From the IMG/VR virus record IMGVR_UViG_3300028048_000043: DNA of 49,554 bases. One strand, written 5' to 3'. The translations under genes were made by a program, and so were the position numbers. Position 1 is the stretch's first letter. Every line of letters starts with the position of its first letter. A model generated the notes under the pieces. That model saw only the letters and a program-made list of their open reading frames with translations. It was not told where the DNA came from and ran no database searches. This DNA comes from a virus (lineage: Duplodnaviria; Heunggongvirae; Uroviricota; Caudoviricetes). Shown here one piece after another: positions 1,728-36,893 of the stretch.

Positions 1728-2357
1728 TTATGCTTCTACAGGTATGCCGTGTTCTTTAATGTGTCTTTGATAACTTATCTTTTCCTGAATCTTAAAATCG
1801 ACATCTTTCCAGGAAATTGGAGTGTAATTGTTGTTATCGACACCAACATCATATTGTGTCGGATAGCAATAACTAAGTCTTCCTTCATCAGAAGTTTTTG
1901 TGTATTTCCCAGAATGCACATGACCATACAGATTGTATGCATACGAATCTTTGTACATATCTGGATCCGCGTGTGCAAAGCAAAGAAACGGAAAATGGTT
2001 CAGGTATACCGTTCTTCCGTCAACCTGTATCCTCGCCTGATATAAAACGTCCTCGAATAATCCCCACAAGCTCTTTTGCAGATTCCTGTCATCGTGGTTT
2101 CCCCTTATAAGAACTATATGACCGTTAAGTTGTTTCGCTACACGTTCTACAACCTGAGGATTACCGAAACAAAAATCTCCAAGATGGAAAACCGTATCGT
2201 TTATTCCAACGACAGAATTCCAGTTTTCTATAAGCGCTTTATCGTGTTCTTCGATATTTGCAAACGGTCTGTTGCAAAACCGAAGTATGTTTTCATGATT
2301 AAAATGGGTATCGCTCGTGAAAAACAACCCGTCTCCAGTAAATTTCGTTATCATCAA
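1728..2357 (-). CDS. calcineurin-like metallophosphoesterase
   Basis: Motifs SDTHF, HLGDF, RGNHD, NHFP, YGHVH, DVGVD. Confidence 0.9.
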   Translation of the reverse strand: MMITKFTGDGLFFTSDTHFNHENILRFCNRPFANIEEHDKALIENWNSVVGINDTVFHLGDFCFGNPQVVERVAKQLNGHIVLIRGNHDDRNLQKSLWGLFEDVLYQARIQVDGRTVYLNHFPFLCFAHADPDMYKDSYAYNLYGHVHSGKYTKTSDEGRLSYCYPTQYDVGVDNNNYTPISWKDVDFKIQEKISYQRHIKEHGIPVEA

Positions 2358-5009: not shown

Positions 5010-5099
5010 CGGTATTTATTTGAAAAAACAAAATATTTTTGCAACTTTTTTACAAAAATTTTTGCATCTTTTGATAATACGTTCATTTACAACGAATTG

Positions 5100-5501: not shown

Positions 5502-5504
5502 AAA

Positions 5505-6440
5505 TTATTTACGTATGTTTCTTCGTTTAGCTATCAAGCTAACATAAGATTTGCTTATATTATATTTTTTAGCAATATATTTATGTTTCATTCCAGACAA
5601 ATAATCTTTAGCGAATGAATCAAGATCAATTTTCGCTATTATTGTATCTGTTCTTTGTTTTACTTTTTTGCCTATGATTCTTCCTTTAGTATAACCTTGT
5701 TTCAAATAGTTATCTAAAAGATCCGCGTTTATTTTAATTGACTTTCCATCATCAGACGTAACCCAGCATGTTCCGTATTGAGAATTTAAGACGCCTTTTT
5801 GTTTTCCACCGCTTTTTAATTTTATACGTATTTTTTCCTTCGTTTCCTCTGTGTGATGACGCCCCTTCCATATCGGTAAATATTCTCCAGATATTAGTTT
5901 AGTGTTATTCTTATCGACTAGAAAAATTTTGTTATGTTTATCTTTAACTGAAAATTTTCCTTTTGTTGGAGTAGAATATCTTTCTTTATTTTGGGCATAT
6001 TCATTGGCATCTATTGATTTAGTCTTTCCGTCATGACTATCAATAACTGTAACCATTCCTTCGCAAACACAGTGATATCTATCTCTGTTTTTATGATACT
6101 CTTCACACTTTATCAACTTTTGTTTGTTTTCGTATGAGTCTAATACCCAGATTCTATTTATATTATTAAACACTTCTCCGCCTAGAGCTATATTATAACA
6201 TGAAGAATCTTCTATCATTTCTTCATTAACAACTTCCATTTCATAATTAGCCGCATCTTCTCTTGTATTAAAATATTTTAGAATCGTTTTCTTAAAATTA
6301 GATTCTCCATATTTCTTATACGCTTGATTTAACCTTACTCCACTACCCATATATCCATCGTCTATGTTGTTCGTAGAGTGTATTCCATAATAGAATTTTC
6401 CGTTTATAATATTCTCTATTTTGTAAAAATAATGATACAT
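5505..6440 (-). CDS. GIY-YIG (Seg-like) homing endonuclease with NUMOD3 motif
   Basis: YFYKIEN..GKFYYGIHST..YMGSG; KGRHHTEETKEKI; C-terminal HTH. Confidence 0.88.
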   Translation of the reverse strand: MYHYFYKIENIINGKFYYGIHSTNNIDDGYMGSGVRLNQAYKKYGESNFKKTILKYFNTREDAANYEMEVVNEEMIEDSSCYNIALGGEVFNNINRIWVLDSYENKQKLIKCEEYHKNRDRYHCVCEGMVTVIDSHDGKTKSIDANEYAQNKERYSTPTKGKFSVKDKHNKIFLVDKNNTKLISGEYLPIWKGRHHTEETKEKIRIKLKSGGKQKGVLNSQYGTCWVTSDDGKSIKINADLLDNYLKQGYTKGRIIGKKVKQRTDTIIAKIDLDSFAKDYLSGMKHKYIAKKYNISKSYVSLIAKRRNIRK

Positions 6441-9027: not shown

Positions 9028-9198
9028 CTGTTTTTTCACAGACACACCAATGCGCTTCGAATCACAATGATATGCCACCAAGTTTATAGTATTATAGACG
9101 ACCTAACGTCCACGCCATATTGCTTGCAAGACTTACTGGCATTTATGTTGAGCCCAGCGACAAACTTGGAAACGCAATTTGAGGACTCTAACATATTG

Positions 9199-9271
9199 TG
9201 CATCCGACAGGACTCGAACCCGCACTCGCATATTTTAGGGACATGCTGCCCAACCATCGGGCTACGGATGC
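9199..9271 (-). tRNA. Arg-like tRNA body with ambiguous anticodon (CTA in a 7-nt loop, or CCT in a 9-nt loop)
   Basis: GCATCCG/CGGATGC-A; GCATGT-CCCTAAA-ATATGC. Confidence 0.7.
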
Positions 9272-10115: not shown

Positions 10116-10187
10116 TGGACCTCATAACGGACTCGAACCGCTGACCTCCTCCCCATGGCGACGCTCTACCGCTGAGCTAATGAAATC
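10116..10187 (-). ncRNA. free-standing tRNA-like element with truncated anticodon arm and encoded CCA
   Basis: 8-bp stem GATTTCAT/ATGAGGTC then CA; normal D and T arms; anticodon arm reduced to TCGCCATGGGGA. Confidence 0.75.
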
Positions 10188-10589: not shown

Positions 10590-10760
10590 AGCGGGATAGG
10601 AGAATCGAACTCCCATATTCAGCTTGGGACTACTAAGTGGATTTGAACCACTGACCTCCGGTGTTTACCGGCACTCTCACTTCTGAGCTATAGTAGCCTG
10701 ATTCGTTTCGGAGAATCGTTCCGTATGAAGGCTGACATTCTACCGTTGAACTAATCCCGC
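10590..10760 (-). tRNA. tRNA-Gly(TCC) split by a 100-nt insert (10627-10726) containing a nested tRNA-like module
   Basis: Exons join to TCAGC-CT-TCC-AA-GCTGA; inner module GGCTACTA..TAGTAGTC with D arm, CCGGT-AAAC-ACCGG arm and T arm. Confidence 0.88.
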
Positions 10761-10787
10761 TTTTTTAAATCATTTATATTCTTAATG

Positions 10788-10955
10788 TGGGAGGTACTGG
10801 ATTCGAACCAGTGACCCTCTGCTTGTGCCCGTAGATTACGCTTCGAACGTAAACCAAACGAACATCGTTTTGTTTTCTCCCGTTCTACAGATAATCCGTC
10901 ACAGTGGATCATTCTGTATAAGGCAGACGCTCTGAACCGACTGAGCTAACCTCCC
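10788..10955 (-). tRNA. tRNA-Val(TAC) split by a 93-nt insert (10827-10919) containing a nested tRNA-like module
   Basis: Exons join to TCTGC-CT-TAC-AA-GCAGA; inner stem TCTGTAGA/TCTACGGG and T arm TTACG-TTCGAAG-CGTAA. Confidence 0.88.
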
Positions 10956-11222
10956 AAAAACGCCCATTCATCTTTCGTGTCGTCACAGCGGTCTCCTGAG
11001 GTCTTTCAGGATGCTAAACCGGTACATACCCTATACGCTACTTCCGCGCCTATATTTAGAGTTAATGCGCTTACCTACGTACACACTCTCTGTACCTTTA
11101 AATGCGTGGTCTCAAACCGCTTCTCTAATTCGGCTCGATTTACAACAGATGTCGTGTGCACCGGACTCTCCGGGATAGAAGCCATCTGCTTCGCGCAATG
11201 GATAAGATGAACTACAAGACTG

Positions 11223-11330
11223 AGCCAGAATCTGGATTCGAACCAGAGCAGCGCCTAAATCGCTATCGCGGACGGCTGTCGTTCTCCGTAGTGGCGTTCT
11301 ACCAGCGTTTCACTTCGCGTCGTTCTGACT
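11223..11330 (-). ncRNA. tRNA-like element with expanded body and no recognisable anticodon
   Basis: AGTCAGAA/TTCTGGCT stem stacked on T arm TCTGG-TTCGAAT-CCAGA. Confidence 0.65.
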
Positions 11331-11333
11331 TTT

Positions 11334-11424
11334 TGGCGGAGGGTGAGGGATTCGAACCCCCGGTGCGCTCAACACGCACAACGGTTTTCAAGACCGCCGC
11401 TATCGACCACTCAGCCAACCCTCC
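11334..11424 (-). tRNA. tRNA-Ser(TGA)
   Basis: GCGGT-CT-TGA-AA-ACCGT, long variable arm, CCA encoded. Confidence 0.96.
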
Positions 11425-11432
11425 GAATTTTG

Positions 11433-11536
11433 CTGGTTGTAGAGGACTCGAACCTCTGACTCCCTGCGTAAGGCAGGGCGCTTTGCCTACTCACACAACG
11501 GAACGCTCTTCCGCCGTTGCTTATCGCTAACAACCA
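11433..11536 (-). ncRNA. tRNA-like element with D-loop hairpin insert and 5-nt anticodon loop
   Basis: TGGTTGT/ACAACCA-G; CCCTGC-CTTAC-GCAGGG; T arm AGAGG-TTCGAGT-CCTCT; directly after promoter 11546-11553. Confidence 0.7.
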
Positions 11537-11571
11537 ATCGTTTTGCAAATATACTGAATTTTTTGAAAAAT

Positions 11572-13248
11572 CTACCATCTTTTGACGGCAGCTGAAGACG
11601 CACGCCTTCCTTCTTTTTCAAAGGAATTTTTGCTTCCAACAAACGATGCCGTTTTTCTTGATGAAGGAATCCACGCTCCGAAATATTCCAAACGATCACA
11701 AGTCAACTCACCTATATAAAGATCATTTTCATTGTTTCCAATATTTTTATTCTGAAGGGCGTTTCCCTGTGTAACTTTATCGTCTATTGATCTTTCAAAC
11801 ATCTTTTCAACTTTGCAATTTACAACAGAAATTCCTTTTCTCTGCTCTATCAATTTAAGATAGATATCATCGACGTTTACATATTTTTCAATCTCTTCAA
11901 GGTTCTTATCTGATATACCAAGTATGTCAGGTGGATAAAGAATTCCACCAACTCCGGTTGGAAATAAATTCATCGACGGATAATGAATCCTACCTGTATA
12001 TTCTTTTCTCCATGTAGAATAACTTGACACTCCACCTTTTCCGTTAGATGTCATAAGGTGAACTCGTCTTGCTATAACGCAATCAGGAAATCTCAGATAA
12101 GAAAACATTAGTTCCTTCAACATATCTTTTGGATAAACCTTGTCGTCGTCCACAGTAACCACCGCATAATTCCTAAATTCTTTCATAGCGTAAAAATATT
12201 TCTTATGCGGTTTTATCTTTTCATCGGTTTTTCTTATCTCGATTGCTCCTGTTTCAGAAAGTTCCTTGAGATAATCTGTCAGATATTCTTCATCCCATGA
12301 ATCTATATACAATAGAATTTTATCTGGCAGAACGCTTTGTTCGACTATACTTTTTACAGCTTGATCTGTGGATCCGGATTTCAACCTCTCTTTATATGTT
12401 GTCATCGAAACAACAACTCTATTTTGACGCTCGATCAGTTTTTCTTTAAATTCTGGGAACGCCTCAAAAAGTTTTTTGTTTATTTCTGTATAATTGTTTA
12501 CCTTGTGGAGAGCTGTCGGCATATTTTGTGATCCTTCTATAAATCTTTCCGAAGAATCATATATCAAACTGCTCTGTCTGAATGTCCTATCTTCAATAAT
12601 ATTGAAACAGAACTGCCAGCTTTCATCTGATGTTGGAGACAACTCCATCATAAGGTCCTCGTCGAAAAATCTCTTATCTGTAAACGTTCCGGCCGGATAT
12701 AATGTTCCTCCGTCTCCATTTGCCGGTTTTGCAAAATTCAAAACAATTCCTGTCTTTCCGTTCATTGTCGTTCCACACTTTCTACAATATGATTTGAATC
12801 TTCTAAGCTCAAGATTGTCACTGAAAAACCAAGAAAAATTACCGCCAATTATATCATTCGGATATTTTTTGTGGTCATCAATAAACATCTTTAACCAACC
12901 TTTTGGTTTTATCGAATCATCGTCCATAATAAGAATAGGATTGTCTGGGTACTTTTTAAGTGTAGGAATAAGCTTTTTATGAGATTTTATGTTCCTTTCG
13001 TACCAGATAATCTCTATTTCTCCGGAAGTTATAAGCTTCCTTATTCCAGACGTCAAATCAATTTCTCTTTTTGGAAATTCTTCCGAACACAAAACGAGAA
13101 CTATGTAATATAGAGATCTTTCGACACCCTGATTGAGCAGAGACTCTATAACAGAATGTACGGTTCCTATCCTTGCCGGATAAGACGTAAACGAAACTAT
13201 GAGTGTGTTTTTCTCAATCATATATTTTACAGTTCTTTTTTCATCCAA
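11572..13248 (-). CDS. tandem two-domain glycosyltransferase (GT2-like)
   Basis: Two repeats: IVSFTSYPARI..KKLIP..ILIMDDD and VVSMTTYKERL..KKYFY..VTVDDD..PTGVGGILYPP; true start may be MIEKN. Confidence 0.82.
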   Translation of the reverse strand: MDEKRTVKYMIEKNTLIVSFTSYPARIGTVHSVIESLLNQGVERSLYYIVLVLCSEEFPKREIDLTSGIRKLITSGEIEIIWYERNIKSHKKLIPTLKKYPDNPILIMDDDSIKPKGWLKMFIDDHKKYPNDIIGGNFSWFFSDNLELRRFKSYCRKCGTTMNGKTGIVLNFAKPANGDGGTLYPAGTFTDKRFFDEDLMMELSPTSDESWQFCFNIIEDRTFRQSSLIYDSSERFIEGSQNMPTALHKVNNYTEINKKLFEAFPEFKEKLIERQNRVVVSMTTYKERLKSGSTDQAVKSIVEQSVLPDKILLYIDSWDEEYLTDYLKELSETGAIEIRKTDEKIKPHKKYFYAMKEFRNYAVVTVDDDKVYPKDMLKELMFSYLRFPDCVIARRVHLMTSNGKGGVSSYSTWRKEYTGRIHYPSMNLFPTGVGGILYPPDILGISDKNLEEIEKYVNVDDIYLKLIEQRKGISVVNCKVEKMFERSIDDKVTQGNALQNKNIGNNENDLYIGELTCDRLEYFGAWIPSSRKTASFVGSKNSFEKEGRRASSAAVKRW

Positions 13249-13571
13249 ACATAAGATATGTCTTCGGAATCAGCAACGAAATCTCTATAACCGTGTCGTT
13301 CGTACCATTCATGAACGAAAGACGTTTTCAGAACCTTTAATATTATCGTCTTGAATTCCATTTTCTTAGCAATGTCAGTCGCCATTTCAAGAATGATATT
13401 TCCCAATCCAGTTCTTCTGTATTTCTCATCTACGAATACGTTAGAAAGATATACAGTGTCCGGATCGTCGTCATATGTATAAAGGGCGAATCTGAAAGAT
13501 TTCTTTAAATCAGAAATATACCAACATTTTCCGAAGTCAGTTGCTTCTTCTCTTATATCGAAGTTATTCAT
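13227..13571 (-). CDS. GNAT acetyltransferase
   Basis: LSNVFVDEKYRRTGLG motif A, WYERHGY; start trimmed to MNNFD to avoid tRNA overlap. Confidence 0.85.
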   Translation of the reverse strand: MNNFDIREEATDFGKCWYISDLKKSFRFALYTYDDDPDTVYLSNVFVDEKYRRTGLGNIILEMATDIAKKMEFKTIILKVLKTSFVHEWYERHGYRDFVADSEDISYVWMKKEL

Positions 13572-13616
13572 TCTTATGATGATGAAGATTTGATTTCTGT
13601 ATTTATCCGCGTAAAG

Positions 13617-13689
13617 TGCTCCCTCGGGGGCTCGAACCCCGGACCCCAACATTAAGAATGTCGTGCTCTACCAACTGAGCTAAGAGAGC
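13617..13689 (-). tRNA. tRNA-Lys(CTT)
   Basis: CGACA-TT-CTT-AA-TGTTG. Confidence 0.95.
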
Positions 13690-13695
13690 AAAGTG

Positions 13696-13769
13696 TACCC
13701 TCGGAGGGACTCAAACCCCCAGTCACCACATCCGTAGTGTGGCATGTTATTCAATTACACCACGAGGGC
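13696..13769 (-). tRNA. tRNA-Arg(ACG)
   Basis: CCACA-CT-ACG-GA-TGTGG. Confidence 0.93.
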
Positions 13770-13778
13770 ATTTACTTG

Positions 13779-13964
13779 TGCGAGCGAGAAGGGGTTGAAC
13801 CTTCACTTAGACTATCCGGTCGCGACTCGGAATCGTCCGTGCGTTTATTCTAGTGTCAAACCTTCGGCAGATCGCGACTCTGTTTATTAACCTCACTATC
13901 TGACACACATATTCGACGCTTCCCCCTTTGGAGTGGGGCGACTTTACCGTTTGTCCACCCTCGC
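13779..13964 (-). ncRNA. 186-nt tRNA-like RNA: Leu-type D arm, CCA anticodon, ~110-nt variable-region insert
   Basis: GCGAGGG-TG-GAC-AAACGGTAAA-GTC-G-CCCCA-CTCCAAA-GGGGG...GAAGG-TTCAACC-CCTTC-TCGCTCGC-A. Confidence 0.72.
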
Positions 13965-13990
13965 ATTCATTTGATTATCAATTAGTTGAG

Positions 13991-14064
<74 letters not shown>

Positions 14065-14387
14065 ATGAAACGGATGTCAGACATATTCGTCACCGTCATT
14101 GGATATTACGTCTCTGACCGACGTTCAGGTGTACACCGAACACCACCTGACATTCTGGTAACAATTGAAACCTTTGTCGACTTAAAGGTCCTCGGCTCAG
14201 AACAACAATAATGCAATCACATACTAACGCGGCGCCACGTTAGCAGATTTATCAACGTCCGACCTTACTCTATAGCAACTCCCTAACAATGCTGGCACGG
14301 GATGTCATACACTATAGAGATACATTCCAGTTCGTCGTCATCCGCCTCAGAATAGGACTTGAACCTACATATAACGTCGTGATTTTG

Positions 14388-14470
14388 TGCGGCTGGGGAG
14401 ACTCGAACTCCCACCCCCTTTCGGGGACCAGTCCCTCAAACTGGCGCGTCTACCATTCCGCCACAGCCGC
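14388..14470 (-). tRNA. tRNA-Leu(GAG)
   Basis: CCAGT-TT-GAG-GG-ACTGG, long variable arm. Confidence 0.95.
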
Positions 14471-14704
14471 ATTTGCACAGATTTTGGATTCGCTTCTGTA
14501 CTGTGCTCAGGCTAGTTTGTCTACCTTTTAATCGGAACGAGCATCGGTCTTATTGACTGCTTCCACCACCACAATACGGTGCAATCCGCAATTGTTGGAT
14601 GGTTTCCGTTTTTGCCGAATCGTGCGAACCTGACCGTTCCTGCCGGGCGTTGGGTCTCGCCGCAGGAAGTCCCGCTCCTAGTGACCAACTTCACGGGACA
14701 GGGG

Positions 14705-14777
14705 TTGCGAAGGGCAGGATTCGAACCTGCGACCTCTGGCTTATGGGACCAGCGAGCTACCACTGCTCCACCCCGCA
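14705..14777 (-). tRNA. tRNA-Met(CAT), initiator-like D arm, C33
   Basis: TGCGGGGTGGAGCAG..AGCTCG; CTGGT-CC-CAT-AA-GCCAG. Confidence 0.82.
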
Positions 14778-14784
14778 ATATTTT

Positions 14785-14932
14785 GACACCAATGGGGAGA
14801 GTCGAACTCCCATTCCGCTCGTTACGTACCGAGGGCAACCTTTACGAAGAATGACCTTCCTCTTCTACTCCCGGAAATTTGATCAGTCTTTCCGGTCCGC
14901 GCTGGTATACCAGATTCCCAGTCACATGGTGT
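14785..14932 (-). ncRNA. tRNA-like RNA with three internal hairpins in place of anticodon/variable arms
   Basis: ACACCATG/CATTGGTGT stem, T arm GGGAG-TTCGACT-CTCCC, hairpins CCGGAAA/TTTCCGG, GAAGA/TCTTC, CTCG/CGAG. Confidence 0.65.
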
Positions 14933-14936
14933 TCAT

Positions 14937-15039
14937 TGGTAGCGGGTCGGGAAGTCGAATCCCGTATCTAGAGGTTATGAGCCTCTAATGATTTCTAGAC
15001 TCTTGTTTAAGAAGTCCCTATCCGTTTCACTCCCCCGCA
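14937..15039 (-). tRNA. tRNA-Met(CAT) with ~27-nt hairpin insert in the D loop
   Basis: AGAGG-CT-CAT-AA-CCTCT, 1:72 mismatch, CCA encoded, insert GACTTCTT-AAAC-AAGAGTC. Confidence 0.8.
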
Positions 15040-15050
15040 ATTTTCAGATT

Positions 15051-15138
15051 TGGCACGGGTGGTAGGATTCGAACCCACGTGAGACTTACGTCTGCTGGTT
15101 TTGGAGACCAGTGCCATCAACCGCTAGGCGACACCCGT
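15051..15138 (-). tRNA. tRNA-Trp(CCA) with long variable arm
   Basis: CTGGT-CT-CCA-AA-ACCAG, G73, CCA encoded, variable hairpin AGAC-GTAA-GTCT. Confidence 0.9.
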
Positions 15139-15320
15139 GTATAAGTTTGGGATATTTATTCTGGGCTTTTCGTCGTGTTAGACGTGTGCAGAAACCGGTA
15201 CCGCTGCCCAGCTCATTGCAAGCCTGTTCTCAAATGCAGGTCTCACTACATTATTTTGTCACTTGCCGTTTCTCCCTTCCAGCACAGATCAACGAGACTA
15301 TGTTTCTGTACTGAAATTTA

Positions 15321-15392
15321 GACATCTATGATTGATTCGAACAATTCCTCCTGCTTTCGCGGCAGGCGTGCTACCTTTACACCACAAGATGT
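15321..15392 (-). pseudogene. tRNA-like element, loop CG-CGA-AA, short variable loop, bulged acceptor
   Basis: D arm GTGT-AAAGGTA-GCAC, CCTGC/GCAGG, T loop TTCGAAT; lacks U33. Confidence 0.65.
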
Positions 15393-15525
15393 GTCCTCGC
15401 GTCTGTGATACTGACAATTTTTATTTATCAAAAAACACAAGGGTCGTTTGAGCACGACCACGTCAGCCATCATTGGTATCACATCCGACCTGGTACTGTT
15501 TTGAGCTCTCATAAGTCCAGGAATT

Positions 15526-15600
15526 TGGTAGCGGGTAGGAGAATCGAACTCCTCTTCCAAGAATGAAAATCTTGTGTACTAACCACTATACGAACCCGCC
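15526..15600 (-). tRNA. tRNA-Glu(TTC)
   Basis: CAAGA-TT-TTC-AT-TCTTG, CCA encoded. Confidence 0.94.
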
Positions 15601-15739
15601 ATGCTGCCTTTTTACTACTCCCAGGAAGGCTAACCTGTCCGTTATACGTTGCACGAATAACAACTTAAAATCGCGAAAACAACGCGAATCAGAGGTTGTT
15701 ATGATCTACGTTCCGGCGTACGTTCCGGCAATTCTTTGA

Positions 15740-16204
15740 TTACTTTGCCTGATCTTCAGCGGCATCAACTGGAACATTTGTGATGCGACGGTCAATCTCG
15801 AATGTAAGACCTGTGAGGGTTTCCTTCACATATCCCTTAATGTAAATGTCGTAATGACCGGTAAAAGCATCAACGGCGACTGCTCCGTCAACCCACTCGT
15901 TGACACGTGCGGCTGCATCAGCAACCCTTGCATCGTTTGAAGCGAGAGCCTCATCGAGAACGTATGACTGTACTCCTCTGAGGTTGACAGCTTCTGTCAC
16001 ATTTGTCCAGCCGAAATCGAAGTTGGCTGCACCGTCCACACCGAAATGCCCACCAGTAAACTCAACGGTAACGGCTGCGTCGGTGTTTCCTGTTACAGCA
16101 AGATCATACTCGATTCCGAACTTTGCATCATTGTTGCACGAAGTGCAAGATGCCGCAAACAACATTGTGATCGCAGCAAGAATAATTGTAAAAAACTTAC
16201 GCAT
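15740..16204 (-). CDS. lipoprotein
   Basis: Signal peptide with lipobox LFAASC; codon usage looks highly expressed. Confidence 0.8.
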   Translation of the reverse strand: MRKFFTIILAAITMLFAASCTSCNNDAKFGIEYDLAVTGNTDAAVTVEFTGGHFGVDGAANFDFGWTNVTEAVNLRGVQSYVLDEALASNDARVADAAARVNEWVDGAVAVDAFTGHYDIYIKGYVKETLTGLTFEIDRRITNVPVDAAEDQAK

Positions 16205-16234
16205 AAAATTTAATTTATTTTGTGAAAAAAGTTG

Positions 16235-16438
16235 CGGAGTTGGCAGGATTCAAACCTGCGATGACCATCAGATGAAACATCGAGCCAGGCGTTTTCCAAA
16301 GGCAACCACACCTGAGTCTTCTGCCATTTTCAACATCGATGTATTTTCAACTATGGTGTTGCGCTCTGAGCGCATCTTACAATTAACGAGGGCTTGATGT
16401 AATCTCCCCACGACCTTCGATCTCTCAGCCACAACTCC
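16235..16438 (-). ncRNA. 204-nt Ser-like tRNA shell around a large insert
   Basis: GGAGTTG/CAACTCC-G, Ser-type start TGGCTGAG..GAAGG, T arm GCAGG-TTTGAAT-CCTGC. Confidence 0.68.
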
Positions 16439-16549
16439 AGTATGCTTTTGCGGATTTGCATTAACCGTATTGGTAGTGAGGCTTTATCGCTTCTCACCAA
16501 GGCTGCGTCTGGCTTTACAGACGGATTCTTCACGTGAATTAAAAATTTA

Positions 16550-17290
16550 GATCCGGCATCTTCATAGCGGTGACTCGATGGGCGGCTCGTCAGCTCTCTT
16601 CCGCACCGATGCTCACTATTTATACTGTCAGTTTCTCAGTATCCTGACCAAACTGTATTGTTAGAGGTATTTTTAACGTGCTCCCTCCTTTCCCACGTAT
16701 TTGCGGCAGTGACTCCGCATCAACCGTTTACTTCACTGCTCACGGTCAACATAGCAGGGCTTTCGCGTGAGTAACAACCTCACATGGCTTTACATTACTG
16801 CAAAGACGGCACCGCTGCCGTAGCCACATCCATAAGACATTCGCTACTAAAGGTTCGTCGCGTGGACTCTAGAGATTAGGTCGTTTAACGGACTAGTTGT
16901 CGGTACGACCACCTTATCGCAACTACTCATTGTTACTCCAGATTCGCTTATTCCTTATGGACATATACAGACAACATCGGCACCGCGCTGAATTTACGTT
17001 TTAATCTTGAATGTGGTCTTAAGCAGAGGCATCTGTTCGTCCCGTTTAATGGGTAAGCTTGCCGTTTAACCACTCCGCCGCTCTCGGTTCTTATTGCCTA
17101 ACGAATTTGTCTGATGTTTTTACGGATCAGCATTAACCGTATTCACGCCGAACCAGCAAGTCTGGCCGACTACTTTTATTGTTTAACGTGGAGTAGACAC
17201 CCTGTCAGAACAGACTCGCGATAACGTCCGCTCACTCATAACTCCATTACTGAGGTGTTTTCCGTTTTAGGCAGAACACCAAACCTAATA
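16550..17290 (-). ncRNA. candidate large structured ncRNA (~740 nt, unidentified)
   Basis: No ORF of 60 aa or more, GC higher than genes, repeated CGTTAAA pseudoknot units; strand inferred from the array. Confidence 0.55.
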
Positions 17291-17576
17291 CACAACCATC
17301 ACCAGCAAAAGTTTTATTGCAGTTGAACCTTGCAAGAGCATTGTCATAGTATCCCATATGTGAACTCGATCATTCGACCTGAACACGGCGACAACCGATT
17401 TTTTACACAACCTACTATAGTTGCAACGCCTCGCGGCGATTCGTCCATAACTATGACAACACAATCCAACCACATCTGTTTTAAACTACGTACTCCAATG
17501 CGAGCCCGCCTCCGATTTTCACGGCGATCTATGATGCTGTTAAGTCATGAGGAGTTATCCTCTGCGACAAATGATT

Positions 17577-17699
17577 TTGATGGTACCGGACTTGAACCGA
17601 CAAGTTTGGAACAATCTACTGCTCTTCCACACCGTTTTTCTCCATGAGTAGAAATATTGGATAAGAACAGTCGTGTTTACCTGTTTCCACCAACCATCA
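17577..17699 (-). ncRNA. Leu-like tRNA shell with extended anticodon arm/insert
   Basis: TGATGGT/ACCATCA-A; GTG-GAAACAGGTAAA-CAC; ACTGTTCTT..36 nt..AAGAGCAGT; T arm GTCGG-TTCAAGT-CCGGT. Confidence 0.7.
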
Positions 17700-17978
17700 A
17701 ACAGATTGTGTTATTGTTATAAAAAATAAATCAAGCGTTTTCGACCTGTATATTCACATACCATTTCAGGTAAACTACCGCTTACGAGTCTGACTCTCTG
17801 CTCGTGCGCGGGGTGGTTGTCGATCCACCGTTTCTTGATTTGATTAAAGAGCATCACTCCGTTTCGAACCAGAATGAATTGTTACCTGGCGTGCTTGTCT
17901 GTCCTATACACCATTGTCCTGTAACGAGCGATGAACCCCCGTTAGCCTCACGGGTCCTCACCTCCAGGTATCTCTTAT

Positions 17979-18178
17979 TGGTAGCGACCTACGACTTCCA
18001 CGTAAATACCCCTCTATGCATGGGGCGTGATAACTCCAAACCTGTTTCTTACTCCTTATCGAGATTGTGCAATCTGTCAAAGTTTCATACTAAAGGACTC
18101 AGTCAAACCATCACAGGCGCTAGCATTTCCTGCTACATTGATTGAACTTTTTACAGGCTCATATTTCACTAAATCGCA
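17979..18178 (-). ncRNA. 200-nt tRNA-like RNA (CAT anticodon, giant D-loop insert, CCA end), copy 1
   Basis: TGCGATT/GGTCGCT-ACCA; GTGA..TCAC D stem; CCCCA-TG-CAT-AG-AGGGG; homologous to 22395-22592. Confidence 0.8.
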
Positions 18179-18210
18179 AATTTCTAACTGATTTATTATC
18201 AGTATTTTTG

Positions 18211-18287
18211 CGGTGCGTATGGGAATCGAACCCATCTGAATCTCCTGAGTGACAGTCAGGCGTCCACACCATGCAGACCCACACACC
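18211..18287 (-). tRNA. tRNA-Asp(GTC)
   Basis: CCTGA-CT-GTC-AC-TCAGG, G73. Confidence 0.92.
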
Positions 18288-19084
18288 TATTCGATTTTAA
18301 TTGTCCCGTTTTCTATTAATTTGTGATGATTAGGGCACACCCACATAAGATTGTTTTTATCATTTATTTCTGAAATTTTTGAATGTGGATCAAAATCTTT
18401 TATTGCTTTTATGTGATGAACCTCTAATATTGAATCAAGCTCATGGTTATGACAAATTTCGCAAACTTTTTCTCTTGACTCGTCTTCCAATAAAATCTTT
18501 TTTGCCATTTTTCTTATCTCTGTACATCTAGATGCCAGATATGGTAATCTTTTGTCATACCCAATGTAATACCCAAGCTCTCTATTTAACATTTTATATG
18601 ATGATCTCTCTTTACTGCAATTTTTACAAAACACAGAAGAAGCAGACTTTCTTCCACCGCACTCTGGGCAAATTTCAGACGTTGATTCTTTTTTTCGTTT
18701 TGGATACTGTCTATTATTATATTTTGCTGAACAGCTTCTACTGCAAAAGAATTCAGAGTTTTCTTTTATTTTCTTATTATATGTGTATTTGCTTATTTCA
18801 AATTCTTTCCCACACTCTTTACACAGAACCTTTACAACATCTTTTTCATGGTCTAATCTTGAACACCGCTGTGAACAATATAACGGAATAACTTTTTTGT
18901 TTTTTGACAAATATCTTTTTGATTTATAAAACGTTGCTCCACAACGCTTACATGTAAACTCAAAAACATCACCACTTTTCGCATTATTGTAATTTTCTTC
19001 AGTAAATACCATACTATAACATTTTGTTTTATTATTTATTTCGAAAAACATAAAATAAAACAAAATTTCGAAAAAAAATTGCAC
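18287..19084 (-). CDS. HNH endonuclease with zinc-ribbon repeats
   Basis: Several CxxC..CSxxC units; CEIC..LEVHHIK..INDKNNLMWVCPNHH; true start probably an internal Met. Confidence 0.88.
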   Translation of the reverse strand: MQFFFEILFYFMFFEINNKTKCYSMVFTEENYNNAKSGDVFEFTCKRCGATFYKSKRYLSKNKKVIPLYCSQRCSRLDHEKDVVKVLCKECGKEFEISKYTYNKKIKENSEFFCSRSCSAKYNNRQYPKRKKESTSEICPECGGRKSASSVFCKNCSKERSSYKMLNRELGYYIGYDKRLPYLASRCTEIRKMAKKILLEDESREKVCEICHNHELDSILEVHHIKAIKDFDPHSKISEINDKNNLMWVCPNHHKLIENGTIKIE

Positions 19085-19170
19085 CGCACAGCCATTATTG
19101 TTTAATTCTAACTTTATAAAAAAGTTATCGTTGTTCCTGACAATAAGTATTCCTTCTTAGGCTACGTTTG

Positions 19171-19277
19171 CTAAGGATGATGGATTCGAACCACCGACCC
19201 ATGCTGGATCAAAGTAGGACTAACGTTTGAAAAACGGATTCCTCACACCAGCTGCTCTTCCACTGAGCTAATCCTTA
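19171..19277 (-). tRNA. Gln(TTG)-like tRNA with 33-nt insert at the 5' side of the anticodon loop, copy 1
   Basis: TAAGGAT/ATCCTTA-G; GCTGG-[33 nt]-CT-TTG-AT-CCAGC. Confidence 0.65.
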
Positions 19278-19313
19278 ATGTGAATCAAACTCAACTTTCT
19301 TAGGCTACGTTTG

Positions 19314-19420
19314 CTAAGGATGATGGATTCGAACCACCGACCCATGCTGGATCAAAGTAGGACTAACGTTTGAAAAACGGATTCCTCACACCAGCTGCTC
19401 TTCCACTGAGCTAATCCTTA
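19314..19420 (-). tRNA. Gln(TTG)-like tRNA with 33-nt insert, copy 2
   Basis: Identical to copy 1. Confidence 0.65.
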
Positions 19421-19575
19421 ATGTGAATCAAACTCAACTTTTTCTCATATCACGCAGTTTCACAGCTGTACGAAGCGCTGCGCCGAGGGATGAGTCTTAT
19501 AACCTTTAGGAAACAACCCGAGGACGATCGTCGTTTGCGCAGTGGTTGTAAGTGATATTGTTTGATTCAGTATTG

Positions 19576-19781
19576 CTGCCCGGGAGAATTTCGAAATCTC
19601 GACCCCCTGATTAAGACGCTATGGTTGGACTCGAACCAACATATTCAAGAAAACTTGATGCAAGTTCTTAGCTTACACCGGATTATAGTCCTACGATCTA
19701 CCTATGAACCACATAGCGTTCGATTCGTCACAGTGAATCAATCTGTGTCAGTCAGGTGCTCTGCCTCTGAGCTACCGGGCA
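19576..19781 (-). tRNA. tRNA-Asn(GTT) split by a 134-nt insert (19615-19748) containing a nested tRNA-like module
   Basis: Exons join to CCTGA-CT-GTT-AA-TCAGG; U1:A72, G73; inner ACGCTATG/CATAGCGT, T arm GTTGG-TTCGAGT-CCAAC. A shifted junction would give CTT (Lys). Confidence 0.85.
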
Positions 19782-20413
19782 ATATGCAAGGCTGATTGGT
19801 TGGCTCAGCCTTGTGAAGCCTCTGTGCATCTCCTACCATTGGTAGAAGCCATCAGGCAAGATTGAATTATCGTGTTTGGATCAACCCTGCGAAAACCTTT
19901 AGGTGATGAAATCACCAAACCGTACTCTCCACGGATTAGACCAAGTTCGCTTTCTTTTAGTGTGTGTAGGAATACGCCTACGTGCGCCAACCTGATGAAA
20001 CTTACACCTCAACTTCGTCCGCATGGTTGCCAACCATATTATCCCTGATTACATTTTTGGAAAACCTTCTAGAAAAATTATCCAAGAATCAAGTTTTCTA
20101 CCGCGTCGATTAGAATTGAAACCGTATAATTGGGTGGCGATCCTCAAAGCTGAAAATCAATTTAACCGATCTTGCGTTGTGGACATTGTACCTATAGCCA
20201 GAGTCCAACCAGCTTATTCCCCGCCTACCGGGGTACTCTTATGTGTCTTCACCGCTTATCGTCCGCTCCATACGGTTAACTAGTATTACATCGGTACGAC
20301 GACAGTTCGGCGTTCAGTTTGCTGCGACCGAGACCTATAGGCGAAACTCTCTAAGAATTTGCAACTTACAAAGAGAGCCAATTCAGTTGTATGTGTTCGA
20401 CTGAATTTTGTGA

Positions 20414-20543
20414 CCGTATAAAGAAACTTATGGGTTTCAATTTCTTGCTTCAACCTATCGCTACTTTTTAGCATAACATTTCTGTTTGGTTCATCCATAG
20501 TTGGATAGTCCACAAGCGTAAATTCGGAAGTACGGCTACCTAT
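20414..20543 (-). ncRNA. orphan IS607 TnpB omega-RNA scaffold/right end
   Basis: Highly similar to tnpB 3' end and right end at 40766-40905; no tnpB and no left end. Confidence 0.8.
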
Positions 20544-20554
20544 TTTTTAATTAG

Positions 20555-20703
20555 TGACCCCGACGGGGCTCGAACCCGTGACCCCAACATTGTGCTCTAA
20601 TAAAGTTACGATCTTTCTAAGTGACCAAATCTTTAGAGCAGAGATTTTAATCAGTTTACTCTGATAGAAAAGTGTTGTGCTCTACCAACTGAGCTACGAG
20701 GTC
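20555..20703 (-). tRNA. tRNA-Lys(TTT) split by a 76-nt insert (20592-20667) containing a minimal tRNA-like module
   Basis: Exons join to CAACA-CT-TTT-AA-TGTTG; inner TGCTCTAA/TTAGAGCA plus T-like arm AAAG-ATCGTAA-CTTT. Confidence 0.85.
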
Positions 20704-22223: not shown

Positions 22224-22302
22224 TACGGACGGAGGGACTTGAACCCCCATACACCAATTACGCTGTTAATGACTGTGTATAAGACAGTGGCGATACGTCC
22301 GC
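22224..22302 (-). tRNA. tRNA-Ile(TAT)-like with no conventional D arm
   Basis: GCGGACG-TATCGCC-ACTGT-CT-TAT-AC-ACAGT-long variable arm-GGGGG-TTCAAGT-CCCTC-CGTCCGT-A. Confidence 0.78.
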
Positions 22303-22394
22303 ATTTATCGGTTAAGGACCCTGTCATAAATCCCGAAGCTCGACAACAGTCGAGATTAACCGATTTTGTTTTTATCAAGACCTAAGTCTCGTAA

Positions 22395-22592
22395 TGGTAG
22401 CGACCTACGACTTCCACGTAAATACCCCGCTATGTCCGGGGCGTGATAACTCCAAACCTGTTTTTTACTCAGCAAAAAAGTTTGCAACCTTTTCCGCCTT
22501 TCATACTAAAGGACCCAGCTAAACCATCGCGGGCTAGCCTCACCCGTTACATTGATTAGACTTTTTACAGGCACATATTTCACCAAATCGCA
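22395..22592 (-). ncRNA. 198-nt tRNA-like RNA (CAT anticodon, giant D-loop insert, CCA end), copy 2
   Basis: CCCCG-GA-CAT-AG-CGGGG; diverged homolog of 17979-18178 with compensatory stem changes. Confidence 0.8.
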
Positions 22593-22711: not shown

Positions 22712-22833
22712 TCGGAGCGGCAGGACTCGAACCTCAACCTCTCGGCTTGTCCGACTGGATTTACAGCGAGTTTTACCGGTGCCTCATCAAACCAGCCTTT
22801 GCGAGTGCTCTACCATAACTGAGCTACACCCCG
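22712..22833 (-). ncRNA. Pro-like tRNA shell with ~50-nt structured insert replacing the anticodon loop
   Basis: CGGGGTG/CGCTCCG-A, normal D arm, insert stem GGCTGG/CCAGTC. Confidence 0.7.
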
Positions 22834-23504: not shown

Positions 23505-23716
23505 CCGTATAAAGAAACTTATAAAAACTTATGAGTTTCAATTTCTTGCTTCAACCTATCGCTACTTTTTAGCATCACATTTCTGTTTGGTTCATCCATA
23601 GTTGGATAGTCCACAAGCGTAAATTCGGGAGTACGGCTCCCTATAATACGGAAAACTTTCAGAAAAAGAAATAATTTTTCGTATTTTTTAATAAAATTTC
23701 ATTTAACAGTTAAATA
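23505..23716 (-). mobile_element. non-autonomous IS607 derivative (MITE): left end fused to omega-RNA/right end
   Basis: 23505-23644 matches 40766-40905; 23645-23716 resembles the left end 43076-43148; GG at both junctions. Confidence 0.85.
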
Positions 23717-31559: not shown

Positions 31560-32218
31560 TATTTCTTGTTTTTCTTATCAAGAATTTTATCACAGATTCC
31601 ATACTCAACCGCCTCCTTTGCTGACATCCAATAATCTCGATCCATATCCTTGAAAACCTTATCGTAGTCTTGACCGGTTTTTTCTGATATGATTTGAACA
31701 AGCTCTGCGCGAGCCTTCTCAATTTCCTTAGCCTCTATCAAAATATCAGAAGCCTGACCGCGAGCGCCACCAAGAGGTTGATGAATTAAGACTCTCGAAT
31801 GAGGCAATATAGAACGTTCACCTTTTTCTCCTGAGCAAAAAAGAACAGCAGCCATGCTTGCAGCCATTCCTGTGCATATAGTTGCAACCTTTGGTTCGAT
31901 TATCTGCATCGTGTCATAGATTGCCATGCCGGAAGTTATAATTCCTCCAGGACTGTTTATATACAAAGAGATTGGTTCATCGTTCAAAGAAGACAGCCAT
32001 AACAACTGCGCCTGAATAACGTTCGCAACATCATCGTTGATTTCCGAACCAAGAAATATTATTCGTTCCATCTGCAATCGACTGAACACGTCCATAGCAG
32101 CAACATTGAGTTTTCTTTCCTCGATGATTGTTGGATTTATATACGTCGATTTCAAATATTGTTCTGTTGTCAAAGAAGATATCCCTCTTGACAATGCATA
32201 TCTTTCAAAATCATTCAT
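31559..32218 (-). CDS. clpP: ATP-dependent Clp protease proteolytic subunit
   Basis: DVFSRL..RIIFLG, YINSPGG, GMAASMA (Ser), IHQP (His), DRDYWMSA. Confidence 0.97.
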   Translation of the reverse strand: MNDFERYALSRGISSLTTEQYLKSTYINPTIIEERKLNVAAMDVFSRLQMERIIFLGSEINDDVANVIQAQLLWLSSLNDEPISLYINSPGGIITSGMAIYDTMQIIEPKVATICTGMAASMAAVLFCSGEKGERSILPHSRVLIHQPLGGARGQASDILIEAKEIEKARAELVQIISEKTGQDYDKVFKDMDRDYWMSAKEAVEYGICDKILDKKNKK

Positions 32219-32700
32219 TTTAACTTAAGTATTTCTTTTGCTTTTTCTATATCTTCCTCTGTAAGTGCGGTTTCGCGGTTAGTTTGTATAAAATGATTTA
32301 CCTGACCAAGAAGCATATCCGCATCATCATCAAATATAACATATTCAACATCGTGCGGTGTGTCTCCCCATTTCGTGCTCGATCCAAAATTCTCAACTAG
32401 ATATTCATCAATCTCTGATCCACGGCAAATCCAGTCCTGCCAATAATGGTTTATGGTTCCTATTATTGGAATTTCACATCCTAGTTCTTTCAGCGGTTCT
32501 ATTGCCGTTGTTCCCCATGATGATGAAATTAGAATTTCGACACCGTCTCCTTTCAGTCTATTAAGCAGCTTTACTTTATCAGGATCCATATACCCGTGAC
32601 CTGGCATCTCGTCTCTACGAACACCGTCATGATACGAGTTGCAGAGAAAATCAAGAGATGCCATCACACCATCTATGTCAAGAAAAATTATCCTTTTCAT
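32215..32700 (-). CDS. HAD-family phosphatase of the Swiss-Army-knife RNA-repair-like type
   Basis: IFLDIDGV, ISSSW, RGSEI, YVIFDD. Confidence 0.82.
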   Translation of the reverse strand: MKRIIFLDIDGVMASLDFLCNSYHDGVRRDEMPGHGYMDPDKVKLLNRLKGDGVEILISSSWGTTAIEPLKELGCEIPIIGTINHYWQDWICRGSEIDEYLVENFGSSTKWGDTPHDVEYVIFDDDADMLLGQVNHFIQTNRETALTEEDIEKAKEILKLK

Positions 32701-35366: not shown

Positions 35367-35997
35367 AACTCATGTAAGCGTCAAATTGTTTCTTATTATA
35401 TTCTCTTATGTAGTTTATTGTTTTTTTGAACTCAAATGGTGTACATCCGGCATAAACGGCACCATGTTTCTTTTCCGTTGCGTTAAAATCGTATATCCAA
35501 GCTACAGCTCCCGCATTGATGTCATCCACACAAAAATGAGAATTGTATCCATCATTGTAGTCTTTCGGAATAAACGTGTTAAAACTTCTCGTTGAAAACG
35601 GTACGATAAGAATCTCATATTCCGCAACCTCTTTCGCTACTTTTATACCGTTTTCCTCCTCAAACGAAACTATAAAATCATCGTACGGTCTTCCAGCGTT
35701 GCATTCGTACGGAGTATCGTTCCAGTCATCACCTGTCTGTTCGTCCAAAGAGCGTGGAGTGAAAAAAGCAAGGTATTCTCTTTCTCCCTTCAAGTACTCA
35801 GGGTTTGGAAGATCCTTAAATCTGAATTTGTCATACAACCAAGGGTTGTTTTTGAATTCTTCATAAGGTATCTTATCGTATTCTTCCTTGAGTTCTGGAG
35901 GAAGAGACCACACTGTTTCCGGTATGGTCTCAACGTAGCAAAGCTTGAACTTGTCAAGCTTGTGTGTTAGTTTCGAGAATTTGATTTTTGTATACAT
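35356..35997 (-). CDS. conserved phage hypothetical protein
   Basis: GDDWNDTPYECNAGRPY, INAGAVAW. Confidence 0.75.
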   Translation of the reverse strand: MYTKIKFSKLTHKLDKFKLCYVETIPETVWSLPPELKEEYDKIPYEEFKNNPWLYDKFRFKDLPNPEYLKGEREYLAFFTPRSLDEQTGDDWNDTPYECNAGRPYDDFIVSFEEENGIKVAKEVAEYEILIVPFSTRSFNTFIPKDYNDGYNSHFCVDDINAGAVAWIYDFNATEKKHGAVYAGCTPFEFKKTINYIREYNKKQFDAYMSYED

Positions 35998-36893
35998 TAG
36001 ACGTTCTCTACGTTTTCTTTGTACCAGGCGTCAAACTCTTTGTATTCGTTAACCCCGACCTTGTCGATTGCAGCCTGAAGGTCTCTATAATCACAGGTCT
36101 TTATTTTGACGATGATTCGCTTTCCGCGAGGATCTTTGATTGGAACAACAGGACGAGCGACAATACCCTCTTCAAGGAAATCCGGATTCGCAACGTTTGG
36201 AACGCGAGTCTTGAACCCTTCTTTCACCATCGCCTCCGCCTGAGGAATAGTCATTTGACCAAGATATGGAGCAACGTCAAGCCCAAGTTTTTCAGCATAT
36301 TCATTAAGCATATCGATTGGAATATACCAACCCTGCTGACAGATGTCGAAGATAGAGAAACGGTTGTTCTCCTTGTCATAGTTTCCACCGCACTGGATCT
36401 TCTTTCCGAAGAACTCACCGTAAATGTAAACAGGAGACTCTTCAAGTTCAATGGCATATACCCAGGGACGATCTGGTGTAATAACTTCACCATCAAGATT
36501 GCGATACATTGGCTGGTTCTTATCGTTTACTATAGGAACGAACTTGGCAGACTCAGGAGGAAACATCTCGGCGAGAATTGGCTTGATTCGCTCGATAACC
36601 TGTTCAAGGAAAGCCTTCTGCCCAGTACCGACAATATCCGCCTTATCTGTCTTTCCGCCGGGGAAGCACTCTCCGGTAGAAGGATAATACACAATTTTCG
36701 ACGAAGTTCCATCTATTTTTGAAAAACAATCAAATTTCAACAATTTTATGTAATCCATAAAATCATCAGAATACTTATCAATAATGATTTTATTCTGAAA
36801 AATCTTCCATTCTGATTTTGGAAGTGAAACCCCATCTAAACGATATCTTCCATGTAGAGTGTTAATTTTTGTGTAAGTTTGAGTCTTTTTCAT
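35997..36893 (-). CDS. ATP-dependent RNA ligase (Rnl2-like)
   Basis: Nucleotidyltransferase motifs I KIDGT, III YGEFFG, IIIa FSIFDI, IV EGIVAR, V IVKIK. Confidence 0.88.
   Translation of the reverse strand: MKKTQTYTKINTLHGRYRLDGVSLPKSEWKIFQNKIIIDKYSDDFMDYIKLLKFDCFSKIDGTSSKIVYYPSTGECFPGGKTDKADIVGTGQKAFLEQVIERIKPILAEMFPPESAKFVPIVNDKNQPMYRNLDGEVITPDRPWVYAIELEESPVYIYGEFFGKKIQCGGNYDKENNRFSIFDICQQGWYIPIDMLNEYAEKLGLDVAPYLGQMTIPQAEAMVKEGFKTRVPNVANPDFLEEGIVARPVVPIKDPRGKRIIVKIKTCDYRDLQAAIDKVGVNEYKEFDAWYKENVENV

Follow-up and report, generated by a model that had tools for sequence, protein, structure and literature searches.

How four tRNA genes, each interrupted in the anticodon loop by a short sequence that itself resembles part of a tRNA, could yield functional tRNAs is the question raised by a viral genome fragment of the class Caudoviricetes, IMG/VR record IMGVR_UViG_3300028048_000043. 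The window, i.e., the whole stretch of 49,554 nucleotides analysed here, is a portion of a phage genome, and the sequencing runs closely matching it are bovine gut metagenomes. Its minus strand carries an array of 26 tRNA genes called by ARAGORN, a tmRNA, and several tRNA-like RNAs. Four inserts were found, all on the minus strand, at 10627-10726 (Gly), 10827-10919 (Val), 19615-19748 (Asn), and 20592-20667 (Lys). The preliminary description had proposed that the exons rejoin into canonical tRNAs, and scripted removal of the inserts indeed produced Gly-TCC, Val-TAC, Asn-GTT, and Lys-TTT genes that are canonical for ARAGORN. A purpose-written split-tRNA finder, which looks for tRNA halves lying far apart, returned exactly these four genes in the window and none in the reversed window. 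The class is not unreported: introns of the same build are present in Lak megaphages (Table S6 of PMC6784885, as far as the accessible part of that source goes). We conclude that the feature is real and is a variant of a class that had been noticed but left undefined; splicing and the enzymes involved we infer. The parts of the four genes are as follows.

10727..10760, minus strand: tRNA-Gly(TCC) exon 1, positions 1-35 (insert removal, split-tRNA finder, comparison with the related phage L123)
10699..10726, minus strand: Gly insert leader, 28 nt, N-Y-A followed by a predicted H-type pseudoknot (0/200 shuffles score as well)
10627..10698, minus strand: near-complete tRNA-like module of the Gly insert with an 8-bp acceptor stem, D arm, anticodon-less arm, and T arm; C74 is 10627
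10590..10626, minus strand: tRNA-Gly(TCC) exon 2 (insert removal, split-tRNA finder, L123 comparison)
10920..10955, minus strand: tRNA-Val(TAC) exon 1, positions 1-34 (insert removal, split-tRNA finder, L123 comparison)
10892..10919, minus strand: Val insert leader, predicted pseudoknot of 28 nt (0/200 shuffles score as well)
10827..10891, minus strand: 8-bp acceptor-like stem and T arm of the Val insert; C74 is 10827
10788..10826, minus strand: tRNA-Val(TAC) exon 2, identical to the intact gene of L123
19749..19781, minus strand: tRNA-Asn(GTT) exon 1, positions 1-34 (insert removal, split-tRNA finder)
19720..19748, minus strand: Asn insert leader, predicted pseudoknot of 29 nt (0/200 shuffles score as well)
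19615..19719, minus strand: 8-bp acceptor-like stem, expanded interior, and T arm of the Asn insert; C74 is 19615
19576..19614, minus strand: tRNA-Asn(GTT) exon 2 (insert removal, split-tRNA finder)
20668..20703, minus strand: tRNA-Lys(TTT) exon 1, positions 1-36 (insert removal, L123 comparison)
20641..20667, minus strand: Lys insert leader, 27 nt, AT-rich, of Lak type with a firm first and a weak second stem, resembling the Lak Phe leader
20592..20640, minus strand: 8-bp stem and degenerate T arm of the Lys insert; C74 is 20592
20555..20591, minus strand: tRNA-Lys(TTT) exon 2 (insert removal, L123 comparison)

All four inserts (76-134 nt) follow the plan that had been described, with a leader of 27-29 nt, an 8-bp stem enclosing a T arm, and a closing C located nine bases past the T stem. 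The leader starts with N-Y-A, and the last base, C74 in tRNA numbering, is C in 4/4. The insertion sites had been reported in the wrong order and are corrected to 35/36 for Gly, 34/35 for Val, 34/35 for Asn, and 36/37 for Lys; a one-base shift of the junction leaves the product unchanged in Gly and in Val. The inner sequences had been called otherwise dissimilar, but homology is clear among the leaders of Gly, Val, and Asn. The inner T arm of the Lys insert is degenerate, with 4/5 stem pairs and an atypical loop, and was missed by a stricter inner-module filter. None of the 26 ARAGORN calls of the window is an intact gene for any of the four isoacceptors, as the preliminary description had noted. 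Inner modules with a usable anticodon were also not found in the window inserts, which thus contain no working copy of the interrupted tRNA of the kind that defines a tRNA-replacement cassette. Since the single-strand folding z-scores of the inserts were modest (-1.7 to -2.5), the case rests on comparison across relatives and not on folding energy.

The related phage L123 has uninterrupted Gly, Val, and Lys genes with junctions matching the window exons. The Lys exon matches to L123 abut exactly, those of Val abut within the one-base slide, and the gap in the Gly alignment corresponds to the 100-nt insert; the Asn gene of L123 is too diverged to fix the junction. Decay of the exons by unpaired substitutions, named beforehand as a sign against the proposal, was not observed for Lys, where the sole difference from the intact gene is pair 28-42 (A-U against G-C), a compensatory change spanning the insert, while the Val exons differ at three positions, all of them unpaired in the tRNA. 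Because the differences are of these two kinds, the exons, as judged from the sequence comparison, behave as tRNA under selection.

The family beyond the window was searched for in viral, metagenome, and genome collections using patterns in which 26-33 bases separate two T loops. The split-tRNA finder requires near-perfect exons, so that decayed copies would be missed. C74 was imposed in several pattern searches, and rows not selected for it were counted separately; CCA was imposed in one, and leaderless ends were also counted in a set free of that selection. At least 617 loci and the window yielded at least 80 distinct split tRNAs, comprising 33 with leadered inserts, 42 with leaderless inserts, and 5 unparsed, one of which is the Lys gene of the window. 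Among the matches listed, the individual pattern searches gave split tRNAs at 23/122, 3/3, 20/125, 39/125, 14/120, and 3/120 loci; in cellular genomes, 3/120 listed loci were split, two by leaderless inserts and one by a tandem duplication. The final tally was at least 41 leadered and at least 42 leaderless inserts. A first leader pattern had no match in viral contigs, and no cultured phage with such an insert was found by five DNA queries, a sixth query matching only the 15 Lak records. A scan for free-standing leadered modules used a loose pattern, which ordinary tRNAs passed too.

Both types of inserts have sharply defined ends. Leaderless inserts start at tRNA position +1 and, among the matches listed, end at position 76 in 39/42 cases, at 74 in two, and at 73 in one; in the unselected set, 15/16 of the listed inserts end at position 76, with an exact CCA in 13. 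One locus (L031) has a complete tRNA-Phe-like gene with a normal anticodon, from +1 to 76, inside a tRNA-Arg(TCT) gene. In leadered inserts, position -1 pairs with 73 in 31/33 of the matches listed. The motif N-Y-A was taken from the window and Lak sequences before offsets were tested. With the 3' cut fixed after C74, it is found at the 5' cut in 33/33 listed inserts, compared with 15, 0, 0, and 23 for four other offsets, and the same register places a purine at position 37 in 33/33. C74 and N-Y-A occur together in 17/19 of the listed rows not selected for C74, the two exceptions being other insert kinds with poor inner parses; this agrees with the earlier proposal of a non-canonical class whose 3' junction is set by the tRNA-like module. 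Over the 41 leadered inserts among the matches listed, position +1 is A in 30, T in 7, and C in 4, position +2 is T in 38 and C in 3, position +3 is A in all 41, and position -2 is a purine in only 23. Both end rules hold across eleven anticodon types and four insertion sites, in inserts that may be as short as 74-79 nt and have a freely variable interior. An intact gene with the same anticodon was absent for 14/20 leadered inserts in the fetched stretches and for 4/4 in the near-complete genomes G002 and G008.

The preliminary description, which noted the leader, missed what marks the 5' junction, namely the conserved N-Y-A and the pseudoknot of the leader. The leader fits an H-type pseudoknot with the first stem starting at base 4 or 5. 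In a shuffle test, the Gly, Val, and Asn leaders scored better than 200/200 shuffled versions, and the Lys leader was matched by 47/200; 27/31 distinct leaders among the matches listed were matched by no more than 10/200. In 12 leaders chosen for a long second stem, 89.6% of cells were paired, versus 19-44% in slid versions, and double changes were found in 17 cells against a shuffle mean of 6.6; the model was drawn from the tested leaders, which are related to each other, and these values are support and not proof. The second stem has only 2-3 bp in the AT-rich Lak-type leaders. The leader is thus predicted to form a covarying H-type pseudoknot, weak in Lys, and on this sequence evidence the 5' junction is set by the conserved N-Y-A together with the pseudoknot leader.

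Introns in tRNA genes of Lak megaphages were reported by Devoto et al. in 2019 (PMC6784885; preprint 10.1101/356790) as "enigmatic," with a possible tRNA inside the Thr intron. In the accessible part of that paper, end rules and a mechanism are not given, the junctions were placed using eukaryotic settings, and a nested tRNA is noted only in Thr. Like the window inserts, the Lak introns listed there have an N-Y-A leader of 27-31 nt, an 8-bp stem with a T arm, a terminal C, and a variable site in the anticodon loop, and they are present or absent between relatives, as in the window versus L123. The features describing Lak-type introns (anticodon-loop insert, tRNA-like module, end geometry) were all found in the window, and an intron-less orthologue with a matching junction was found for Val, Lys, and Gly in L123. 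Our scripts recovered the Thr, Phe, and "Tyr" introns of Lak-A1 under the same end rule. The gene published as Tyr-GTA (L655, 20022-20114) reads Asn-GTT under the end rules and has a short variable region and G73. Three of the four window inserts differ from the Lak introns in a GC-richer leader with a full second stem of 5-7 bp. For 262 genomes of recoded jumbo phages, a later study (PMC13037316) mentions, in the text available, tRNA introns that "could encode another tRNA" and gives no anatomy; the accessible parts of PMC8346664 and 10.1101/2021.08.26.457843 add nothing on mechanism. We found no description of the anatomy or splicing mechanism in the literature on phage tRNA introns, huge phages, RNase Z, and RNase E, although subscription papers and supplements may hold one.

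Do the inserts belong to a known kind of intron? The tRNA introns of archaea and eukaryotes, which are excised and whose exons are joined by proteins (EndA or TSEN at a bulge-helix-bulge motif, then RtcB or Trl1), are also short and located in the anticodon loop, and in archaea non-canonical sites occur. In contrast, no bulge-helix-bulge was present at any of the four junction pairs, in agreement with the preliminary description; at most 3/4 central pairs formed and the flanking helices were incomplete in all registers tried, and the inserts carry their own tRNA-like recognition module. EndA (PF01974) was encoded in 0/32 records and 0/10 bacterial control genomes, a control set that may not include the host. 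Group I and group II introns of bacterial and phage tRNAs likewise interrupt anticodon loops and are mobile. The window inserts differ from both in size and in the lack of a catalytic-core match: group I is rejected because the terminal base is C and not G in 4/4 and no Rfam match was obtained at E up to 1, and group II in view of the length of 76-134 nt and the lack of an Rfam match. The same arrays contain longer anticodon-loop inserts of 186-244 nt that look group I-like by eye (L627, 4402-4672; L628, 12149-12466; L637, 12448-12739; L622, 15205-15500); those of L627, L628, and L622 had no Rfam match at the gathering score.

A whole insert could also be a minimal self-splicing intron of its own, using the terminal C as group I introns use the terminal G. 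The invariance of this C, which RNase Z would leave unexplained, and the position of the pseudoknot, suitable for stacking on the acceptor-like stem, speak for such an intron. We regard it as very unlikely, given inserts down to 74-79 nt with a variable interior and hardly any invariant bases, the lack of group I or group II matches, and the bare tRNA ends of the leaderless sister type.

Processing of tRNA ends by RNase P and RNase Z, as in tRNA punctuation or for mascRNA-type transcripts, is another parallel, where the cuts at the ends of a tRNA-like module are directed by the module itself. Here, however, the module lies inside another tRNA, the flanks would have to be joined, and the leadered 5' cut is not an RNase P site. 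The RNase P excision step suggested in the preliminary description does not hold for the four inserts, since the cut expected of RNase P, at the 5' end of the inner module, lies 27-29 nt downstream of the actual 5' junction; only the leaderless type has its 5' junction at such a site. Among self-cleaving RNAs, the theta ribozymes of gut phages resemble the leader as small pseudoknotted RNAs next to a tRNA processing site, but according to the accessible text of PMC10879173 they are nested double pseudoknots at tRNA 3' ends, whereas the leader is a single H-type knot in an anticodon loop whose catalysis is hypothetical. A fold like that of the hepatitis delta virus (theta) ribozymes, a nested double pseudoknot with P3 and P1.1, was rejected for the leader, which fits two stems only and has no Rfam match; no ribozyme family in Rfam matched the inserts.

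With slightly better than even confidence, and arguing from sequence, we read the inserts as introns that would be cut out by ordinary RNA-processing nucleases, the exons being rejoined by a phage ATP-dependent RNA ligase. Both RNase Z and RNase E leave 3'-OH and 5'-phosphate ends, which are joined by ATP-dependent ligases and not by RtcB, and this scheme of two cuts and a seal is ranked first because of this fit. The tRNA repair by Pnk and Rnl1 of phage T4, where a phage ligase seals anticodon-loop breaks, is a comparable system. In the first step, a host enzyme of RNase Z type would read the inner acceptor stem and T arm and cut after C74, the first base left unpaired by the pairing of -1 with 73, so that exon 2 would begin with a 5' phosphate. 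A single-strand endonuclease, most plausibly RNase E given the W at +1 and the U at +2 of the junction, would then cut three bases before the pseudoknot, whose role would be to set the register and to keep RNase P away from the inner 5' end. The exons, held together by the paired acceptor and anticodon stems, would finally be sealed 3'-OH to 5'-phosphate. The family may have originated from the ligation of tRNA-like RNAs into anticodon loops that had been nicked, followed by fixation in DNA, and the leaderless type, running from +1 to CCA, looks like a product of such ligation. RNase Z cuts after the unpaired base ending the acceptor stem or after an encoded CCA, as stated in the accessible part of PMC7479834, and these positions coincide with the 3' ends of leadered and leaderless inserts, respectively. 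The consensus of RNase E is given as RN/WUU with a U+2 ruler in the part of PMC5222698 available; the 5' junction agrees with it at +1 and +2 and not at +3.

Three genes of the window encode candidate enzymes for the joining and healing steps.

35997..36893, minus strand: ATP-dependent RNA ligase, Rnl2-like, putative sealing enzyme (PF09414, E 1.9e-12; TIGR02307 weak; nucleotidyltransferase motifs by eye)
32215..32700, minus strand: HAD_SAK_2 phosphatase, putative 3'-end healing enzyme (PF18143, E 1.5e-15)
1728..2357, minus strand: metallophosphoesterase, possible healing enzyme judging from sequence, also present in the two near-complete leadered-type carriers

A role for the window ligase had been suggested in the preliminary description. 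The link to ATP-dependent RNA ligases as a group is retained, but this particular ligase is rejected as a specific splicing factor, being found in only 2/32 records, one of which is the intron-less relative. The wider tally included matches to PF09414, PF09511, or TIGR02306 at E up to 0.001 in carriers with a completeness of 90% or more, of which 2 are leadered and 12 leaderless. An ATP-dependent RNA-ligase-like open reading frame (ORF) was present in 14/14 carriers versus 5/13 controls with 9-38 tRNAs (Fisher p 0.0006), in a count that mixes three families, includes several weak matches (E 1e-7 to 1e-13, below the cut-off), and compares mutually related carriers, only 2/14 of them leadered, with controls incompletely screened for inserts. 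Such an ORF was also found in Lak-A1. A short PF09414 ligase gene (229-251 aa) lies in or beside the tRNA array with leadered inserts in G001, G003, G009, and Lak-A1. RtcB was found in 0/14 carriers and 3/13 controls and not in Lak-A1, but was present in one incomplete leadered record and in the Bacteroides control genome. Among complete genomes, HAD_SAK_2 occurred in 3/3 of the leadered type, in addition to the window, 1/12 leaderless, and 2/13 controls; among incomplete records, in 3/9 leadered, 1/8 leaderless, and 3/9 controls, and also in the intron-less relative. Phage-borne RNase Z over the cut-off was found in 0/32 records and phage-borne RNase E in 0/5, while the Bacteroides thetaiotaomicron control genome had RNase E/G and RNase Z-family matches. 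The G008 genome shares with G002 and the window metabolic genes, phosphoesterases, HAD_SAK_2, a DRB0094-like ligase, and several unannotated ORFs; a shared phage endonuclease was not identified in this comparison, which covered 73/173 G008 ORFs. No solved structure matched the ligase or the HAD protein by sequence.

RNA runs X2 and X4, which derive from one sample and were searched as assembled contigs, contain the array. No contig crossed any insert by an exon-exon joint among the best 15 of 76 joints listed, and alignment of the Asn and Lys genes to the contigs also gave no exon-exon joints, i.e., no spliced product was seen in these runs. Joints such as 20584-20678 were rejected as splicing, as they occur in DNA too and represent tRNAs of other organisms. 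One X4 contig stops, with no loose end, precisely on the final base of Asn exon 1 (19749), where the DNA contig continues; this finding from a single study was not counted. The X2 contig at the Asn gene ends at 19862. Insert bodies had no RNA cover, and the Lys insert had no DNA cover either, so that the hole in the RNA shows nothing. In the DNA run, the Asn gene is one contig, without an excised form.

The lack of a spliced product, the rarity of the window ligase, and the limits of the ligase tally weigh against the proposed cutting by RNase Z and RNase E with sealing by a phage ligase, as do several further points. In the available text on RNase E, the preference of this enzyme is for U at +3 and for sparsely structured RNA, but 41/41 inserts among the matches listed have A at +3, followed by a pseudoknot, and the purine of its consensus is matched at -2 in just 23/41 of them. 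The accessible part of PMC7479834 reports RNase Z as indifferent to the discriminator base and needing a mature 5' end, and for this reason the invariant C74 and the attached leader are left unexplained. The distribution of HAD_SAK_2 is easier to reconcile with a phosphate-ended 5' cut than with RNase E. A host among the Bacteroidota is presumed by analogy with Lak and from the habitat. Finally, 6/20 leadered inserts adjoin an intact call with the same anticodon, and Lak-A1 has both split and intact Asn genes.

Because C74, A+3, the 5'-end requirement of RNase Z, and the phosphatase pattern are not accounted for, a second model is retained, which we consider unlikely. The pseudoknot leader would be a new self-cleaving ribozyme, or would recruit a phage endonuclease, and make the 5' cut, leaving a cyclic phosphate on exon 1; RNase Z would make the 3' cut, HAD_SAK_2 would heal the end, and a ligase would seal it. 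Exactly three bases separate the cut from the first stem of the covarying pseudoknot downstream, A+3 is invariant, and HAD_SAK_2 is concentrated in the complete leadered-type genomes; gut phages are also described, in the part of PMC10879173 available, as using theta ribozymes related to that of hepatitis delta virus at tRNA 3' ends. On the other hand, the invariant bases (A+3 and C74) are few for a catalytic core, the second stem is short in the AT-rich leaders, Rfam contains no matching family, and HAD_SAK_2 is no more frequent in incomplete leadered records than in incomplete controls, its activity being a Pfam prediction.

It is distinctly improbable, in our estimate, that the inserts are not removed at all and represent selfish or defensive insertions inactivating the genes, halves of split tRNAs, or decoy or replacement cassettes like those noted in bacteria of the candidate phyla radiation. 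No junction was seen in any RNA, intact genes with the same anticodon are called near 6/20 leadered inserts, phage tRNAs can be dispensable, and homing-endonuclease genes lie within the array at 5505-6440 and 18287-19084. Such inserts would not explain the perfect pairing of the exons, in which a compensatory change spans the insert, nor the single-base rules at both ends in eleven anticodon types and four insertion sites. Gene replacement is impossible for window modules lacking a usable anticodon, and the DNA run shows the Asn gene with no excised form.

Other unusual RNAs were identified in the array. A tandem duplicate tRNA-like RNA (19171-19277 and 19314-19420, minus strand), in which a 40-nt region replaces the anticodon loop, belongs to neither insert type. 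Additional tRNA-like RNAs, whose arms are expanded, missing, or odd, are located at 17575-17700, 22712-22833, 22224-22302, and 10118-10186 (minus strand), and the Leu-like one of the window has a homologue in L123 (16661-16800). A tRNA with a CTA anticodon (9198-9271, minus strand) is a possible amber suppressor, though the window ORFs read well in table 11. A GOLLD-like large RNA at 4029-4457 (minus strand) scored 70 bits, under the gathering score of 150, and this stretch is 91% identical to L123. Two pairs of non-coding blocks repeated directly downstream of tRNA genes (about 20430-20543 and 23520-23640; about 17970-18180 and 22365-22580) are possibly structured RNAs. At the tmRNA gene (5097-5507, minus strand), one X4 contig connects 5099 at the 3' end, with one extra letter, to 5507, which lies six bases upstream of the mature 5' end; this may reflect a circular precursor or a reverse-transcription jump.

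New from this locus are an array with four examples, orthologues that have no intron, a pseudoknot at the 5' junction supported by covariation, and rules for both ends that hold to the single base. A broader and rather unlikely possibility is that tRNA introns have a fourth kind, to which these inserts belong and which moves among the anticodon loops of phage tRNAs: a new self-cleaving ribozyme built on a pseudoknot of 24-33 nt would make the 5' cut, a tRNA mimic would direct the 3' cut, and the phage would heal and seal the ends, the leaderless type being a whole tRNA spliced from another tRNA by RNase P and RNase Z. The 2019 report on phage tRNA introns, in the part accessible, left their removal in a bacterium lacking EndA unaccounted for. 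The end rules, i.e., cuts before N-Y-A with the pseudoknot and after C74, or from +1 to CCA, are exact predictions that can be mutated in RNAs shorter than 210 nt. Genes of this kind are missed in annotation or given a wrong anticodon, which affects inventories of phage tRNAs. If splicing does take place, its pathway would be distinct from those of group I, group II, and bulge-helix-bulge introns and would combine tRNA-end processing with RNA repair, possibly with the participation of a new ribozyme.

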